NCBI GenBank assembly: GCA_016840425.1
Contig: JAEOSI010000014.1
Span: forward strand, 1-20,924
Source: Candidatus Wukongarchaeum yapensis
Lineage (GTDB): Archaea > Asgardarchaeota > Wukongarchaeia > Wukongarchaeales > Wukongarchaeaceae
Direction: 5' to 3'
DNA: 20,924 nucleotides
Made by a program: the position numbers and the translations under genes. This document shows positions 4,372-9,495 of the stretch, one piece after another (position 1 is the stretch's first letter; each line of letters begins with the position of its first letter). The notes beneath the pieces are model-generated. The model saw only the letters and a list, made by a program, of their open reading frames with translations, was not told where the DNA came from and searched no databases.

Positions 4372-5754
4372 ATGGGGGTTCAACTGAATAATAAACAAGA
4401 AAACAAGGTTTTGGTTTTAATTGATGGAGATCACACTGCTCCTGTCATTTCAAAAGGTTTAGAAAAGCTTCGAAAAAAGGGAAAAAAGATAGTCGCAGGT
4501 TTATTTGTGGGAGGGGTTGAAAAAATAGGGGACATTAAAACGTTAGAGAATAGGTTAGGGATCCCTGTAGAAATATTAAAAATGGATTTTCCTAAAGTGC
4601 TTCAATTTTTACATGAAAAACATGGGTCTTTTAACACTATTTTTGACCTTTCAGATCATCCGATATTAAGCCCAAAAGATAGGATGAAGATCGGTGTTGA
4701 AAGCCTTATTAGAGGTTATAAGTATGAGGGAGCAGATTTTTCCTTCGGTCCTTTGGAGCTGAAAGAAAACGTTTTGGATAAATTTTCTTTGGGAGTGATA
4801 GGTACAGGGAAAAGGACGGGAAAAACAGCGATCAGTGCCCATATCGCAAAGATCTTAAAGGAAAGGGGGGTTGAGGTGTGTATAGTGACCATGGGACGTG
4901 GAGGCCCAAAAAAACCAGAACTAATCAAGGGAGAAGAGATTGAAATCACGCCAAAATTCCTCGTAGATTTGGTAAAAAAGGGTTATCATGCAGCAAGTGA
5001 TTGCTGGGAGGATGCTTTAATCGCAAAAGTTGCGATTATTGCTTGTACGAGGTGTGGAGGGGGCTTGGCTGGCAAAACTTTCTATGATAACGTTTTAGAA
5101 GGGGCGAAAATGGCTAACTCGCTTCCTGTAGACGTTGTTATACTTGAAGGAAGCGGTACCGCGATGCCCCCAGTAAAAGCAGATAAATATGTGGTGGTAG
5201 TCTCCGCATGGCAACCTGAGTATCTAATTTCAGAGCATCTTTCCCCGATACATATAAAAATTTCGAGTTTAGCGATAATAACAGGGTGCGAGCCACCAAT
5301 TGCAAGTAGTAAGAAATTGGAAAAAATCGTGAAGAAGATAAAAGCCATTAAACCGGAAATAGAAGTAGTAAAGACTGTTTTCAGACCTGTACCATTAAGC
5401 GATATAACAGGTAAAAAAGTGTTTTACGCCTTTACAGCCCCTCCAGAAATCACAAAAAAGAACATAGATTACCTAGAAAAAACATTTAATTGTTCTGTTC
5501 CATACTATACCAATCAGCTTGCTAATCGGTTAAAGTTAAAAAATGAAATTGAGAAAAATATCGAGAAAGTAGATGTTCTCCTCACAGAGCTTAAGGCGGC
5601 AGCTGTCAATATTGCTACAACTACGGCGCTTTCTTTTGGAAAAGAGACGGTTTACGCCCATAATGCTCCTGTTTTTATAGACGGAACAGTGGAATCTTTG
5701 GATGAAGCGATTCTTAGCCTTATACCGAAAAATAGAGGGATAAAAGATTGGTGA
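4372..5754 (+). CDS. cpgS: Cyclic 2,3-diphosphoglycerate synthetase
   Basis: LIDGDH, GGVEKI, DLSDHP, GTGKRTGKTAIS P-loop, MGRGGP, HAASD, RCGGGLAG, LEGSG and TELKAAA motifs; 460 aa; adjacent to 2-phosphoglycerate kinase. Confidence 0.95.
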   Translation: MGVQLNNKQENKVLVLIDGDHTAPVISKGLEKLRKKGKKIVAGLFVGGVEKIGDIKTLENRLGIPVEILKMDFPKVLQFLHEKHGSFNTIFDLSDHPILSPKDRMKIGVESLIRGYKYEGADFSFGPLELKENVLDKFSLGVIGTGKRTGKTAISAHIAKILKERGVEVCIVTMGRGGPKKPELIKGEEIEITPKFLVDLVKKGYHAASDCWEDALIAKVAIIACTRCGGGLAGKTFYDNVLEGAKMANSLPVDVVILEGSGTAMPPVKADKYVVVVSAWQPEYLISEHLSPIHIKISSLAIITGCEPPIASSKKLEKIVKKIKAIKPEIEVVKTVFRPVPLSDITGKKVFYAFTAPPEITKKNIDYLEKTFNCSVPYYTNQLANRLKLKNEIEKNIEKVDVLLTELKAAAVNIATTTALSFGKETVYAHNAPVFIDGTVESLDEAILSLIPKNRGIKDW

Positions 5755-6698
5755 TTAAAGTTTTGGGGAAGGGTTTCTCAACACCCTTTTCTAGAGGTAT
5801 TTTAGCTCAAAGGCTTTCAGCTACAGGCTTGGACCCGAAAAAGGCTTATTCCATAGCGGAAAGATTGCTTTTAGAACTTCAAAATAAACAAGTCCAAGAG
5901 ATTTCCACAGAAGAGTTGGATGAAAGGATAATTGAGATTCTTTTGGGCGAAGTGGGAGAAACTACTGCGAAAAGATTTTTAATGTATAGGAAGCTCAGAC
6001 AACTCGAAGAACCCATCATAATTTTAATATCTGGGACGACGGGGGTGGGAAAATCAACCATAGCTTCCATGTTGGCAAGCAGGCTTAACATCCACTACGT
6101 CATAGGAACAGACATAATAAGGGAAATTTTTAGGAAAGTGCTTTCAAAGGAGTTGTTTCCAAGCCTCCACACCTCCACATATATGGCCTGGAAGGAGTTA
6201 AAACGTTACATACCTCCCACATATTCAAGGGAGATTTTAGGGTATGAGGAACAGGCAAAACTTGTCACTGTGGGTATAGAGGCAATCAGTCAAAGAGCAT
6301 TCGTAGAAGGAATTTCTATGGTTATAGAGGGGGTGCACATATCCCCAAACTTGATAGCAAAAGAGTTCCTTGGAAATCTTAACACGATTTTCATGTTCTT
6401 GAATCTTAAGGATGAGAAAGTACACAGAGAAAGATTCCATTCTAGAGCGACAAACGTGGTTATAAAGCGTCCTATAGAAAAATACTTAGAAAATTTTGAT
6501 AGTATTAGAAAGATCCAAGATTATCTTCGGGAACAGGCAAGGATTACAGATATTCCAATAATTGAGAATCAGAACATTGATGACACCTTAAAAACGATGC
6601 TCGATTTTGTATATCATGCCATTGAGTGTATCGTAACCTCAAAGCTATCCCCAGAAGAAATCGAACTCTTAAAAATAACTAAAAAATCTAATTTTTGA
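5751..6698 (+). CDS. pgk2: 2-phosphoglycerate kinase (ATP-cone + P-loop)
   Basis: PFSRGILAQRL ATP-cone, ISGTTGVGKST, IGTDIIRE, LHTSTY and VIEGVHISP. GTG 5751 overlaps the cpgS TGA stop (GTGA), with GAGGG upstream; TTG 5748 is an alternative start. Confidence 0.93.
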   Translation: MIKVLGKGFSTPFSRGILAQRLSATGLDPKKAYSIAERLLLELQNKQVQEISTEELDERIIEILLGEVGETTAKRFLMYRKLRQLEEPIIILISGTTGVGKSTIASMLASRLNIHYVIGTDIIREIFRKVLSKELFPSLHTSTYMAWKELKRYIPPTYSREILGYEEQAKLVTVGIEAISQRAFVEGISMVIEGVHISPNLIAKEFLGNLNTIFMFLNLKDEKVHRERFHSRATNVVIKRPIEKYLENFDSIRKIQDYLREQARITDIPIIENQNIDDTLKTMLDFVYHAIECIVTSKLSPEEIELLKITKKSNF

Positions 6699-6844
6699 CT
6701 ACTTTTACGCATAAAACTTCTTAATTTTCAGGGTACCACATCGTGAAAGTTTAAAATGATTGAAGGGGAAGGCGCAAATATTTAAAGAGACAAAAACTTA
6801 AAATATTTAAGTAAATCGTCCCCTTATATTAAAGTTAAAACATT

Positions 6845-6948
6845 GGGTCGGTAGTCCAGATTGGTTAAGATGCCAGCTTGGGGTTTTATGAAAAACTTTT
6901 CTTGGAACAATGAGTTGGTGATCGCGGGTTCAAATCCCGTCCGACCCA
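6845..6948 (+). tRNA. tRNA-Pro(GGG) with ~29-nt intron at canonical 37/38 (6884-6912); CCA not encoded
   Basis: Acceptor stem GGGTCGG/CCGACCC plus discriminator A; D-loop with TGG; anticodon stem CCAGC/GTTGG with loop TT-GGG-G|intron|A; T-arm GCGGG-TTCAAAT-CCCGT. Confidence 0.92.
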
Positions 6949-7122
6949 CTTACAAACACCCTCTTTTAAACCTCTTAGAGATGTTATTTTGATTATCGGG
7001 GGATTTTTAAGAGAGTTATGATTACCGGTCATAATTAGTATCACTTTTGTAACTGAACTAGTGCGGTGCTTATAAACGGTTTTTTGTAATGTTATATAGA
7101 AAAAGTTGTTAGTGGGAGGGAG

Positions 7123-7196
7123 GGTGGCGCGGTTTTTATAAAAAGACGTATGGCACAAAAATGGCGTTCTGTATAAAAAACGTTACCGCGTCACCA
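7123..7196 (+). ncRNA. Candidate tRNA-sized structured non-coding element
   Basis: 11-bp GC-rich terminal stem GGTGGCGCGGT (7123-7133) / ACCGCGTCACC (7185-7195) with one G-U pair and additional internal pairing. TTATATA at 7092-7098 lies 25 nt upstream and a T-tract follows at 7204-7215. Confidence 0.4.
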
Positions 7197-7431
7197 TGTA
7201 GAATTTTTCTTTTCTAGGGTTTATAAGGGTTTTTATTACACGCTTTTTATTTATTTGAGGGTCCTTGAGATCCTTGAAAAATCGGGATCTACATAGACGA
7301 ATAAACTCAATCGTTTTCGAGAATAATTTGCGATATCTGCGGATCGTTTTGAGAGAACATTTTATTAGAATTAGTCCCTATAATTAATTGTAGAAGTAAG
7401 TTTTCCCTCGATGGGTTTTGGAGGGAGAAAA

Positions 7432-7689
7432 TTGGTTGATAATGAGTATAAAGATAAAAGTGAAATCTACAAAGGTGAGAAAACGATCATACACTTTACC
7501 TTTGTAATGGCTTGCAACGATCCTCAATTTGCAGCCGACTTCCTCTACAAAGCCCTAAAAAAGGAGAGAAAGGAGAACCTCTTCCCGATTTTCAAGGAAA
7601 GAGTCGCAAATCTCTTGGAACAAGAACGATATAATTATGAAGCCAGCTGTCTGAGAACAATAAACAAAATAAAAATGGAAGAAAAATAA
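7432..7689 (+). CDS. Hypothetical small protein, paralog A (85 aa from TTG)
   Basis: GGAGGG at 7420-7425 precedes TTG 7432. 49/78 aligned positions are identical to paralog B. ATG 7411 is in frame here, but the equivalent ATG in copy B (8023) is out of frame, which favours the TTG start. Confidence 0.8.
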   Translation: MVDNEYKDKSEIYKGEKTIIHFTFVMACNDPQFAADFLYKALKKERKENLFPIFKERVANLLEQERYNYEASCLRTINKIKMEEK

Positions 7690-7700
7690 ACACTTCTTAA

Positions 7701-7778
7701 TTATTCTTTTTCTTTTTTTAGTTTTTCTAGGTTTTCTAGTAGGCTGCCTTCTTTTTTCTTGGTGATGGCGAGGGGCAT
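7701..7778 (-). CDS. Conserved basic micro-ORF MPLAITKKKEGSLLENLEKLKKEKE (or the 3' end of an eroded gene)
   Basis: The homolog in copy B differs at many synonymous third positions (CCC/CCT, CTC/CTT, AAG/AAA, AAA/AAG, CTA/CTT, CTA/CTG, GAA/GAG). Confidence 0.5.
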   Translation of the reverse strand: MPLAITKKKEGSLLENLEKLKKEKE

Positions 7779-7816
7779 TTCTTCTAGATTCTAAAAAACA
7801 TGTTAACTTTTGCCGG

Positions 7817-7890
7817 CAAAATCTTCTCTATTTCTGCTAATTTTTCCACGATTTTTCTCCTTTTTCTGTAAGTGAAATCTTCCTAAAGGA
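7817..7890 (-). pseudogene. Remnant of the C-terminus of a winged helix-turn-helix regulator
   Basis: The minus strand reads FRKISLTEKGEK, then IVEKLAEIEKIL after a 1-nt frameshift in an A5 run. This is the wing plus final helix pattern of MarR-like/archaeal wHTH proteins. No intact N-terminus is present. Confidence 0.45.
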
Positions 7891-8042
7891 TTAGGAAAAA
7901 TAATATGGCAAAGCTTGAAGCTTTTGCGGTATCTGCGGATTATTTTGTGAGATCATTTTATTATAGTTAAATCTAATAATTAATTGAAGAAGTAAACTTT
8001 TGTAGAAATAGGGCTTCCCTCGATGAGTTTGGAGGGAAAAAA

Positions 8043-8288
8043 TTGGTTGATAACGAGTATGAGGATAATTATGAAATCTATAAAAATGAGAAAGCGCTCA
8101 TAAACTTCACCTTCTTTGTGGCGTGTAAGAATCCGCAGTCTGCAGCCACTTTCCTTTACAGCGTTCTAAAAGGGGAGGAGAAAAAGAAACTATTCCCGAT
8201 CCTCAGGGAACGGATCGCAAAGCTTTTGGAACAAAACTATTGCCACTACGAAGCCGCCGTCCTAAGAACAATAAACATAGAAGAATAA
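8043..8288 (+). CDS. Hypothetical small protein, paralog B (81 aa)
   Basis: GGAGGG at 8031-8036 precedes TTG 8043; gap-free protein alignment with paralog A. Confidence 0.8.
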   Translation: MVDNEYEDNYEIYKNEKALINFTFFVACKNPQSAATFLYSVLKGEEKKKLFPILRERIAKLLEQNYCHYEAAVLRTINIEE

Positions 8289-8307
8289 GCTTTTTATTTC
8301 TCTTTTT

Positions 8308-8364
8308 TCAGTTTTTTAGCTCTTCAAGTAGGGGTTTCTTTTTTTTACTGATGGTAAGAGGCAT
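8308..8364 (-). pseudogene. Copy-B micro-ORF MPLTISKKKKPLLEELKN, apparently shortened by a 1-nt deletion in an A-run
   Basis: Adding one A after CTA AAA restores ...LKKLKKEK*, which matches the copy A end LEKLKKEKE*. Confidence 0.4.
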
Positions 8365-8574
8365 TTCTTCCAAGATCAGTAAGATTATTAGCCATTTTAA
8401 ATGATGAAATTTTTGGTTTTTTCTAGGTTTAGGAGGGTGAAGAAGAGTGTTGTTTCATGTTTTTTGTGGGGAATGGAAACTTATGTTTTTATATGGGTGG
8501 CGCTTTTAGGATATATTGTTTTTTCATGTTTTTTAGGGGGTGTATAGACTGTTTGTGATGGGGGTTATTGGCTG

Positions 8575-9495
8575 ATGGTGGAGTGGCAGAAGAGGATAGT
8601 TGAGAATCTTGAGGGTATTACTGTGTCTCTTGATGAGGAGGTACCTTTTGATGGAGATAAGTGTTTAAGTGAGTGTAGCGGGCTTTGTTGTTTTGATATT
8701 CAGGTTATGGTTGATCCTTTTGACGTTTTTCGTATTACGCGTTCAAAGCATGTGCATGAGAACCTTGGTATAACGGATACTACTAAGCTTTATGAGGGAG
8801 AGCAACCGCTTTTATTGTACTATGTGGGGAGGACTTCTAACATGCCTTTTGCCATAATTAATTTTCGACGTGTAAAAGTTCTTGGAAAAGATGTAAAGAT
8901 AAAGAAATGTCCTTTTCTCGTGCCAGCTTTTCCAAAATTATACGCAGAAAAGGAAGGTAATAAGGGAAATAAAGGGGGTAAGGGAAGGTATTTTGTCGTG
9001 GCGAGGGCGGGGGAACCTATGATTTGTGCCCTTGAAAAAGCTAAACCCACCATTTGTAGGAGTTCTCCCATAGGCAGGGCGTTAATATTTGGTGGGAAAG
9101 ATAGGAAAAAGGAGTACAGGTTTATTTATAAGCCCCCTGACCCTAATTGTCCTGCTTGTAAGACGGAGAAAAAGGTTAAAGTTGGGGATTATATAGAGGA
9201 ATGGCATCTGATAAACTCCTACAAATATAAGGATCTATTCTTTGATTTGATTTGCTGGCTTCAGGAGAAAAAATTTCAATTTCCAAAGGATTTAATCTAC
9301 AAGTTGGGGCAGATTCTATACAATTTTGATAACCCCCTCACAAAAAATATTATAGAAACTTATCGAAAGGCTAACGGCCGAACTAGCGGACTAGAATTTG
9401 CAGAACTTTACGAAGTTTTTAAAAAGATGGCAGAAATCGTTCACGAAGAACGGCAGAAAAGATCCTTAAAAAAGCAAGCAAACAGTAAAAAATAG
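8575..9495 (+). CDS. YkgJ/FliB-like (CxxCxxCC family) cysteine-cluster Zn/Fe-binding protein
   Basis: CLSECSGLCC, DPFDVFRI, CPFL, ICALEKAKPTICRSSP and CPAC motifs. Confidence 0.8.
   Translation: MVEWQKRIVENLEGITVSLDEEVPFDGDKCLSECSGLCCFDIQVMVDPFDVFRITRSKHVHENLGITDTTKLYEGEQPLLLYYVGRTSNMPFAIINFRRVKVLGKDVKIKKCPFLVPAFPKLYAEKEGNKGNKGGKGRYFVVARAGEPMICALEKAKPTICRSSPIGRALIFGGKDRKKEYRFIYKPPDPNCPACKTEKKVKVGDYIEEWHLINSYKYKDLFFDLICWLQEKKFQFPKDLIYKLGQILYNFDNPLTKNIIETYRKANGRTSGLEFAELYEVFKKMAEIVHEERQKRSLKKQANSKK

Follow-up and report, generated by a model that had tools for sequence, protein, structure and literature searches.

Two small, related genes lie side by side in a 20,924-nucleotide (nt) stretch of the genome of the Asgard archaeon Candidatus Wukongarchaeum yapensis (contig JAEOSI010000014.1, positions 1 to 20,924; hereafter the window, whose coordinates we use unless another contig is named). 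They are just 3' of a gene that appears to encode tRNA-Pro, and we call them A and B. It is likely that both are real genes, each with its own transcript, and that they belong to a lineage-restricted family of orphans, whose members are soluble, all-helical proteins of about 82 amino acids. We found no support for a toxin-antitoxin, anti-defence, or mobile-element mechanism for the pair.

Open reading frame (ORF) A (7432-7689, plus strand) encodes 85 amino acids and ORF B (8043-8288, plus strand) encodes 81; both start with TTG. A preliminary description of the window, made without database searches, held that both frames are intact, are led by a ribosome-binding site, and are maintained by selection, and all of this is borne out. 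The two proteins are identical at 48 of 77 positions (62%; E = 6e-34). Between the two genes, the ratio of nonsynonymous to synonymous substitution rates (dN/dS) is 0.25, with 25.2 synonymous differences at 44.8 sites and 39.8 nonsynonymous differences at 183.2 sites (Fisher p = 3e-5). For B, dN/dS is 0.17 against its orthologue in a congeneric genome (G001; Fisher p = 2e-5) and 0.18 against its orthologue on a White Oak River-type contig (L011); across the orthologues, it ranges from 0.14 to 0.18. These values are far from 1, RNA-library contigs match the family (see below), and no housekeeping family matches it. Both ORFs are real genes under purifying selection. As for the start codon, TTG is the only one that is kept in frame in all nine close copies that we compared, with GGAGG kept 7 nt upstream of it; the divergent L026 copy has CTG. 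An in-frame ATG upstream of the TTG is present in copy A and is mutated or out of frame in most of the others.

We also considered if the repeats might be a non-coding repeat or RNA element, with ORFs that are open by chance: the genes are short, with a TTG start and no database family, and are set in AT-rich DNA. This is extremely unlikely. The excess of synonymous changes is strong in every comparison (p about 1e-5), all nine close copies are open from the same start with no indel in their 77-codon core, and the protein has a confident AlphaFold model.

Given a 25-row alignment, AlphaFold2 predicts five helices (residues 4-26, 30-43, 47-63, 67-75, and 78-83), with a predicted local distance difference test (pLDDT) of 84.5 and a predicted template modelling score (pTM) of 0.73. 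From the alignment and the model, the 82-residue proteins are charged, soluble helices. Neither of the long ORFs' proteins has a credible match in Pfam, PHROGs, PADLOC, or NCBIfam; we disregarded a match of L025 only to the CARF_HEPN model (E = 0.0094) and a match to L18e (E = 0.045) as noise. In a profile search of PDB sequences, the best E value was 1.3. Searches by fold (Foldseek against the PDB, BFVD, VIA-wide, and the ESM Atlas) found no significant structural neighbour: Foldseek's E values were 2.4 or higher and its probabilities 0.16 or lower, with a designed tetratricopeptide repeat (TPR) protein, 5fzq, in the top row (E = 2.4), and the best VIA Z score (6.8) is under the tool's stated noise level for helical proteins. 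Searching the ESM Atlas by features gave scores of 0.77 and 0.75. Our best guess, and a tentative one, is that the product may be a small protein-binding adaptor or regulator.

The two ORFs lie in homologous units, as the preliminary description had proposed, and all of the elements that it listed are present. Unit A (7284-7787, plus strand) comprises a promoter region, a 5' leader, the ORF, and a terminator; it is a clade A copy (the clades are explained below). Unit B (7923-8370, plus strand), a clade B copy, is the resident gene, orthologous to the one copy that related genomes carry. BLASTN aligns 7327-7784 with 7923-8370 at 72% identity over 477 columns (E = 1.5e-62). Three direct-repeat blocks, which are collinear and have spacings of 586-611 nt, link the units: 7327-7404 and 7923-8000 (81% identity, spacing 596), 7417-7666 and 8028-8277 (74%, spacing 611), and 7753-7784 and 8339-8370 (81%, spacing 586). 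T-tracts (oligo-T) follow the stop codons of both ORFs. Each unit is a complete monocistronic transcription unit, with an upstream block, a TATA-like box, a leader hairpin, an ORF, and T-tract terminators. In this sense, each is the compact, self-contained cassette of an unrecognized family that was originally described. Near-identical DNA is present in marine-sediment, seawater-labelled, and mangrove metagenome runs. Among independent assemblies, a 2062-nt mangrove-metagenome contig spans 6600-7460 and a 539-nt contig spans 7734-8274.

An 18-nt non-coding block had been reported upstream of each ORF. Direct reading confirms that 17 of its 18 positions are identical, but this block is merely the beginning of a conserved upstream region: about 110 nt upstream of the TTG are conserved in all 11 of the family loci that we aligned. 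Between orthologues, identity in the upstream region is 85-96%, as compared to 52-67% at synonymous sites (pS 0.33-0.48). In unit A, the region (7327-7397, plus strand) includes a GC-containing block (7327-7352), a TATA-like box with the sequence TTTTATTA (7360-7367; 7956-7963 in unit B), and an AT-rich proximal element (7379-7397; TAATTAATTG). We suggest that this is an archaeal promoter with an operator, which would comprise a regulator-binding site, a B recognition element (BRE) and TATA box, and an initiator region. Because of the usual distance from the TATA box to the start in archaea, transcription probably begins near 7390, which would give a leader of roughly 40 nt.

The leader is predicted to form a hairpin that contains the Shine-Dalgarno (SD) sequence. 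In unit A, the hairpin is at 7401-7429 (plus strand), its 3' arm is the SD sequence GGAGGG (7420-7425), and its minimum free energy (MFE) is -13.2 kcal/mol. The hairpin of unit B is at 8015-8038 (plus strand), with GGAGGG at 8031-8036 and an MFE of -12.1 kcal/mol. An equivalent stem that pairs with the SD is the predicted MFE structure in nine of ten loci, with three compatible pairs of arms (CCCUC/GAGGG, CUCCC/GGGAG, and CUCCU/AGGGG). A conserved SD-pairing stem just upstream of the start codon is what one would look for in an SD-occluding leader hairpin, and such a stem is predicted in this family. In the mechanism that we propose, the hairpin would pair the SD with the anti-SD-like CCCUC arm, and translation from the conserved TTG would require the stem to open. 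The amount of protein would then be set at two steps: at transcription, through the upstream site, and at translation initiation, through the hairpin. In L025 (2808-2978), the promoter and leader region is tandemly repeated (77-nt period, 2.2 copies, 89% matches), with a GGAGGGAG arm in each repeat.

The RNA evidence is from one run of a related strain, labelled as a leaf-litter metatranscriptome, in the form of assembled, unstranded contigs. A 221-nt contig on the ORF of a paralogue extends to 33 nt upstream of the TTG, taking in a variant of the hairpin, and a 267-nt contig contains the 3' end and the terminator of a C236_B-type paralogue. These contigs suggest that the family's genes are probably transcribed. 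In the same run (X20), no contig lies on the end of the 2-phosphoglycerate-kinase gene or on the 306-amino-acid gene downstream of unit B; as these are contigs only, this absence proves nothing.

The same library also has a 177-nt contig that covers exactly 7101-7277, between the tRNA and unit A. Its five differences are all outside of 7120-7195. Here, 7123-7196 can form a hairpin of about 74 nt, closed by a GC-rich 11-bp stem, inside a 335-nt stretch that is unique to this genome. The hairpin has no match in Rfam and no copy in G001 or G002. We consider 7101-7277 to be a candidate small RNA. An E-value scan of 6940-8580 with Rfam returned only IsrR (E = 0.39), which is noise.

The family was found in a single, narrow Asgard group; as a family it is new, though its kind is familiar. 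A word-indexed search of 5.8 billion proteins found 20 members, all 56-93% identical and none with a Pfam domain. An exhaustive search of 1.84 billion cluster representatives with a hidden Markov model (HMM) found only two family clusters and two artefacts (P0023 and P0024), which are translated tandem repeats or low-complexity sequences rather than relatives. Two of the 41 Asgard genomes searched contain the family: W. yapensis itself, with six copies, and the congener, with one copy in a genome that is 87% complete. Among the GTDB species representatives, the family was found in the congener only, and no relative was found in IMG/VR. Metagenome contigs add one distant lineage (L025/L026, 53-58% identical). 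We disregarded L027/L029, which lie inside a 594-amino-acid open frame that looks RecJ-like by eye. NCBI labels the relatives that carry the family as either Ca. Wukongarchaeota or Ca. Hodarchaeota.

The neighbourhoods of the family's genes vary: the tRNA-Pro gene here, HEPN and Ras-like GTPase genes in L008-L010, a tyrosine recombinase at C192/L033, and an ERCC4 fragment on C236. Ras-like GTPase genes are numerous in the W. yapensis genome. In three Wukongarchaeota assemblies, a small GTPase gene of this type is convergent with the family gene (L008 3131-3649); its orthologue in W. yapensis (C48 4756-5262; 76% identical) has no family gene nearby. In some copies, the terminator is separated from the stop codon by an additional ~170 nt (L008 2936-3130, C236 about 1830-2002, and L032 574-727). 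This addition was called as a 39-amino-acid ORF in one assembly, but in L008 it has an ACG start and a 1-nt indel, which speak for non-coding sequence. A contig of the RNA library crosses it.

How did the two genes come to be adjacent? The gene order 2-phosphoglycerate-kinase-like gene, tRNA-Pro, 306-amino-acid gene, CarS, and Hel308 is common to the window, the congener (L016, from G001), and the White Oak River-type contig (L011/L012). In both relatives, a single family gene abuts the tRNA and precedes the 306-amino-acid gene. By BLASTN, 6001-6952 and 7931-8343 of the window are contiguous in L016 (1386|1387) and in L011 (2474|2475), and 7931-8343 is 87.7% identical to L016 and 84.6% identical to L011 at this syntenic site. 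Relative to both, the window has two extra segments, of 978 nt (6953-7930) and of 117 nt (8344-8460). The 978-nt segment consists of 335 nt unique to this genome, unit A, and a 135-nt spacer; the 335-nt stretch at 6949-7283 has no copy in G001 or G002, nor elsewhere in the W. yapensis genome (G000).

In a maximum-likelihood tree, the family falls into two clades (support 100/99). Copy B groups with the two syntenic single copies (G001 and L011), while copy A groups with the C43 and C236 copies from the same genome and with the gene of a Wukongarchaeota assembly. The idea that a single module had recently been amplified is not supported, as A and B belong to two old, well-supported clades. Unit A is 91-92% identical over about 500 nt to the C43 and C236_A copies, which lie in unrelated flanks; between C43 and C236, the identity is 96% over 693 nt. 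Among these A-type copies, the limits of homology are nested at the 5' end (500 vs. 693 nt) and common at the 3' end (7784-7787). We propose that B is the resident gene at the syntenic site between the tRNA and the conserved 306-amino-acid gene. A most likely arrived later, by recombination or segmental copying, because the 978-nt segment is absent from the relatives and because A is nearly identical to copies elsewhere in the genome. Synonymous divergence (dS) also favours a later arrival of A: it is 0.15 among the A copies and 0.43 between the B orthologues.

The arrival of A could also be explained by the integration of a small element next to the tRNA-Pro gene; this element would be spreading through the genome with copy A as its cargo, an accessory or anti-defence gene. 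The 978-nt segment lies directly after the tRNA and is absent in two related genomes, and A-type copies that are 91-96% identical are at three loci with unrelated flanks. Also, the C192-type copy adjoins a tyrosine recombinase, and other copies are near a HEPN gene and what looks by eye like a fragment of a type I restriction subunit. The recombinase (191 amino acids) has a full catalytic domain (Pfam, E = 2e-40), and the family copy is divergent from it (L004 279-1402); on contig L033, from another sample, the same pairing recurs, with a 182-amino-acid gene in the matching position (a match by position). On the other hand, none of the ten window ORFs that we scanned is an integrase, and, apart from unit A, the 978-nt segment is non-coding. 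Neither a search for direct repeats nor BLASTN of 6601-8900 against the genome found an att-type repeat of the 3' part of the tRNA in the window. The repeat and flank comparisons showed neither target duplications nor terminal inverted repeats flanking unit A. At the 5' side, homology stops at nested points and not at a fixed one, the pattern that segmental copying would leave. The B copy keeps its syntenic position stably in three lineages; in the related genomes, one copy is directly against the tRNA, as a conserved syntenic gene. Neither the integrated element at the tRNA nor the anti-defence or viral cassette of the preliminary description is supported by these results: PHROGs, PADLOC, BFVD, and IMG/VR had nothing to offer for the latter. 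More specifically, we found no PHROG match, no BFVD fold match at an E value of 0.001 or below, and nothing related in IMG/VR; Asgard viruses are poorly sampled. Overall, we think that cargo of a mobile or viral element is an unlikely explanation, and we prefer recombination or segmental copying.

Opposite the end of each unit is a short minus-strand frame: micro-ORF A (7701-7778, minus strand; 25 amino acids, lysine-rich), which is antisense to the T-tract terminator, and micro-ORF B (8308-8364, minus strand; 18 amino acids), whose start is inside the 117-nt stretch (8344-8460) that is missing from related genomes. These frames exist as first reported, but they are probably not genes. At the orthologous locus, neither G001 nor L011 has the start region, the micro-ORF is absent after the C192, C236_B, and L008 copies, and in L032, ACG replaces its ATG. 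The repeat unit ends, on its 3' side, 6-9 nt beyond the ATG of micro-ORF A, which leaves no room for a conserved promoter before it; any promoter would be in the unrelated flanks. Most of its lysine codons are the antisense of the terminator's T-tracts. The rate ratios of the micro-ORFs are 0.28-0.56, which is not significantly different from 1 (p = 0.08 and 0.36). The micro-ORFs are improbable as real genes, and are more likely by-products of A-rich sequence antisense to the terminators.

The micro-ORFs bear directly on the suggestion that each cassette is a toxin-antitoxin pair, or that the ~82-residue protein forms some other functional sense/antisense pair with the basic, convergent micro-ORF (or with an antisense transcript of it). 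The cassette is compact and multi-copy, one relative adjoins a HEPN gene, the micro-ORF is intact in four copies in the W. yapensis genome, and its rate ratio is below 1 (though not significantly so); furthermore, micro-ORFs A and B differ by an in-frame 3-nt indel and five synonymous changes (ratio 0.44, p = 0.08). But a partner gene should not be missing at orthologous loci (in the sister genome and the related metagenome contig) and after other copies, lose its ATG in another relative, or depend on unrelated flanks for its promoter. Type II systems are adjacent, co-oriented, and co-transcribed genes that are conserved together, and the only candidate partner here is convergent and is missing from the orthologues and from other copies. 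Type I toxins are short, hydrophobic, membrane-active peptides, whereas both micro-ORF peptides are hydrophilic and rich in lysine and glutamate, and the 82-residue proteins are charged, soluble helices. Neither protein matches a toxin or antitoxin domain in Pfam, PADLOC, or NCBIfam, or by fold, which a new family would escape. A toxin-antitoxin-like cassette is very unlikely, and that part of the preliminary description is not supported; we return to the reading of A and B as two separately transcribed, single-gene units.

We also considered if the micro-ORF could be a fossil of the C-terminus of a Ras-like GTPase, an idea prompted by the convergent arrangement of the family gene and a GTPase gene in L008. 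Positions 8286-8345, at the terminator of unit B, are clearly homologous to the intergenic terminator of L008 plus about the last 20 nt of its GTPase ORF (score 88, vs. a maximum of 45 for shuffled sequences). However, TBLASTN of the GTPases against all of the downstream regions finds only the lysine-rich tail, so we dropped this idea.

A-type and B-type genes are side by side at three loci: in the window (C136), on C236 (also in assembly L032), and on L025. The L025 pair has the opposite A/B order, and its placement in the clades is less sure, with long branches. This recurrent adjacency suggests that the two proteins may form a heteromer. The predicted complex of A with B scored 0.02, which gives no verdict, and we counted it neither for nor against. 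Because one member of each old clade adjoins the other at three loci in at least two lineages, one can go further and imagine that the A- and B-type paralogues are an obligate two-protein unit, with A perhaps spreading by homology-guided insertion upstream of B via the shared promoter block. We see only a small chance of this. If true, the A/B unit would represent a novel type of module, small, made of two genes, self-propagating, and confined to one Asgard lineage.

Several points weigh against the reading of A and B as two separately transcribed genes with the history given above. There is no family or fold match from which to infer a function. The promoter, the transcription start, and the role of the hairpin are predicted from conservation and folding, and the z-scores of the hairpins relative to shuffled sequences are weak (-0.2 to -2.1) because runs of C and G, that is, composition, drive the fold. 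The RNA contigs come without strand or end information and could reflect carry-over of DNA. The in-frame indel and the synonymous differences between the micro-ORFs are what a real micropeptide might show, improbable as we judge it to be. Finally, the two related genomes are sisters, so a deletion in their common ancestor would look the same as an insertion of A; the contrast in dS is the sole argument for insertion, and gene conversion could also fit it.

The tRNA gene (6845-6948, plus strand; Rfam RF00005, 47 bits) has a 29-nt insert, an intron, in its anticodon loop. Reading the loop by hand, it appears to be a tRNA-Pro with U33, the anticodon GGG, G37, and an intron after position 37. ARAGORN does not call this gene in its default mode, and in its intron mode it calls tRNA-Ile(AAT), which disagrees with the GGG (Pro) reading and which we judge to be implausible. 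The homologous tRNA in L011 scores 52.8 bits. Compared to the tRNAs of two relatives, the anticodon stem is altered on both sides and the loop is unchanged.

The assembly that contains the window is 2.16 Mb in 277 contigs, 92% complete, and 38% G+C. The flanks of the window contain ordinary archaeal genes: FeoB, an iron-dependent repressor, the 2-phosphoglycerate-kinase-like gene, CDP-archaeol synthase, and a Hel308-type helicase. The 2-phosphoglycerate-kinase-like gene scores 333.6 bits, slightly below the 343-bit cut-off. A CbiA-like P-loop gene (460 amino acids) is directly upstream of it and overlaps it (both in 4372-6698); the CbiA-like protein has no match in NCBIfam. This layout resembles what we take to be that of the cyclic-2,3-diphosphoglycerate pathway of thermophilic methanogens. 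The pathway would be surprising in an Asgard archaeon from sediment.

These genes add a well-delimited, selected, and probably expressed family of orphan small proteins to the poorly known pool of lineage-specific Asgard genes. To our knowledge, gene regulation in Asgard archaea is almost unstudied experimentally, and this family offers a clean example of a conserved promoter/operator region combined with a leader hairpin that is predicted to hide the SD. The analysis also corrects an attractive reading of the locus in terms of toxin-antitoxin systems, anti-defence, and tRNA integration; the synonymous signature in the micro-ORFs is best explained by the terminator sequence. The analysis brought up no connection with eukaryote-like biology or a known defence system, and the wider impact is modest unless the A/B pairing is functional.

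One comparison is to a hypothetical protein of a Ca. Wukongarchaeota metagenome-assembled genome, Q6362_010455 (NCBI; P0004), which is a true member of the family. It is 82% identical to copy A by search (85% in the family alignment) and shares the upstream region, the hairpin, and the TTG start. It differs in its location, where it follows a HEPN gene and faces a convergent Ras-like GTPase gene, and in having the additional ~170 nt before the terminator. In terms of fold, TPR-like hairpins and short helical bundles (5fzq, Fis1, and the N-terminal bundle of the B12 photoreceptor, 8j2w) are weak top rows that are likewise all-alpha, with five helices here. Unlike TPR and other helical-repeat proteins, the family protein has no significant structural row and no match to Pfam's TPR models. 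The family resembles type I and type II toxin-antitoxin cassettes in being compact, in having several copies per genome, and in its variable neighbourhoods (HEPN, integrase), but it has no conserved second gene and no toxin or antitoxin domain, and the micro-ORF is hydrophilic and missing from orthologues.

For the leader, a parallel is the hsp17 RNA thermosensor of Synechocystis, a simple 5' leader hairpin that occludes the SD (PMC3074152). In both cases, a short leader forms a single hairpin, whose 3' arm is the ribosome-binding site directly before the start codon, and this arrangement is conserved across our family. The likeness is in the predicted fold: here, the hairpin precedes a TTG start codon in an archaeal host, and the downstream gene is not a heat-shock gene. 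The family's stem, at 6-9 bp, GC-rich, and -9 to -13 kcal/mol, is unlike that of the hsp17 thermosensor.

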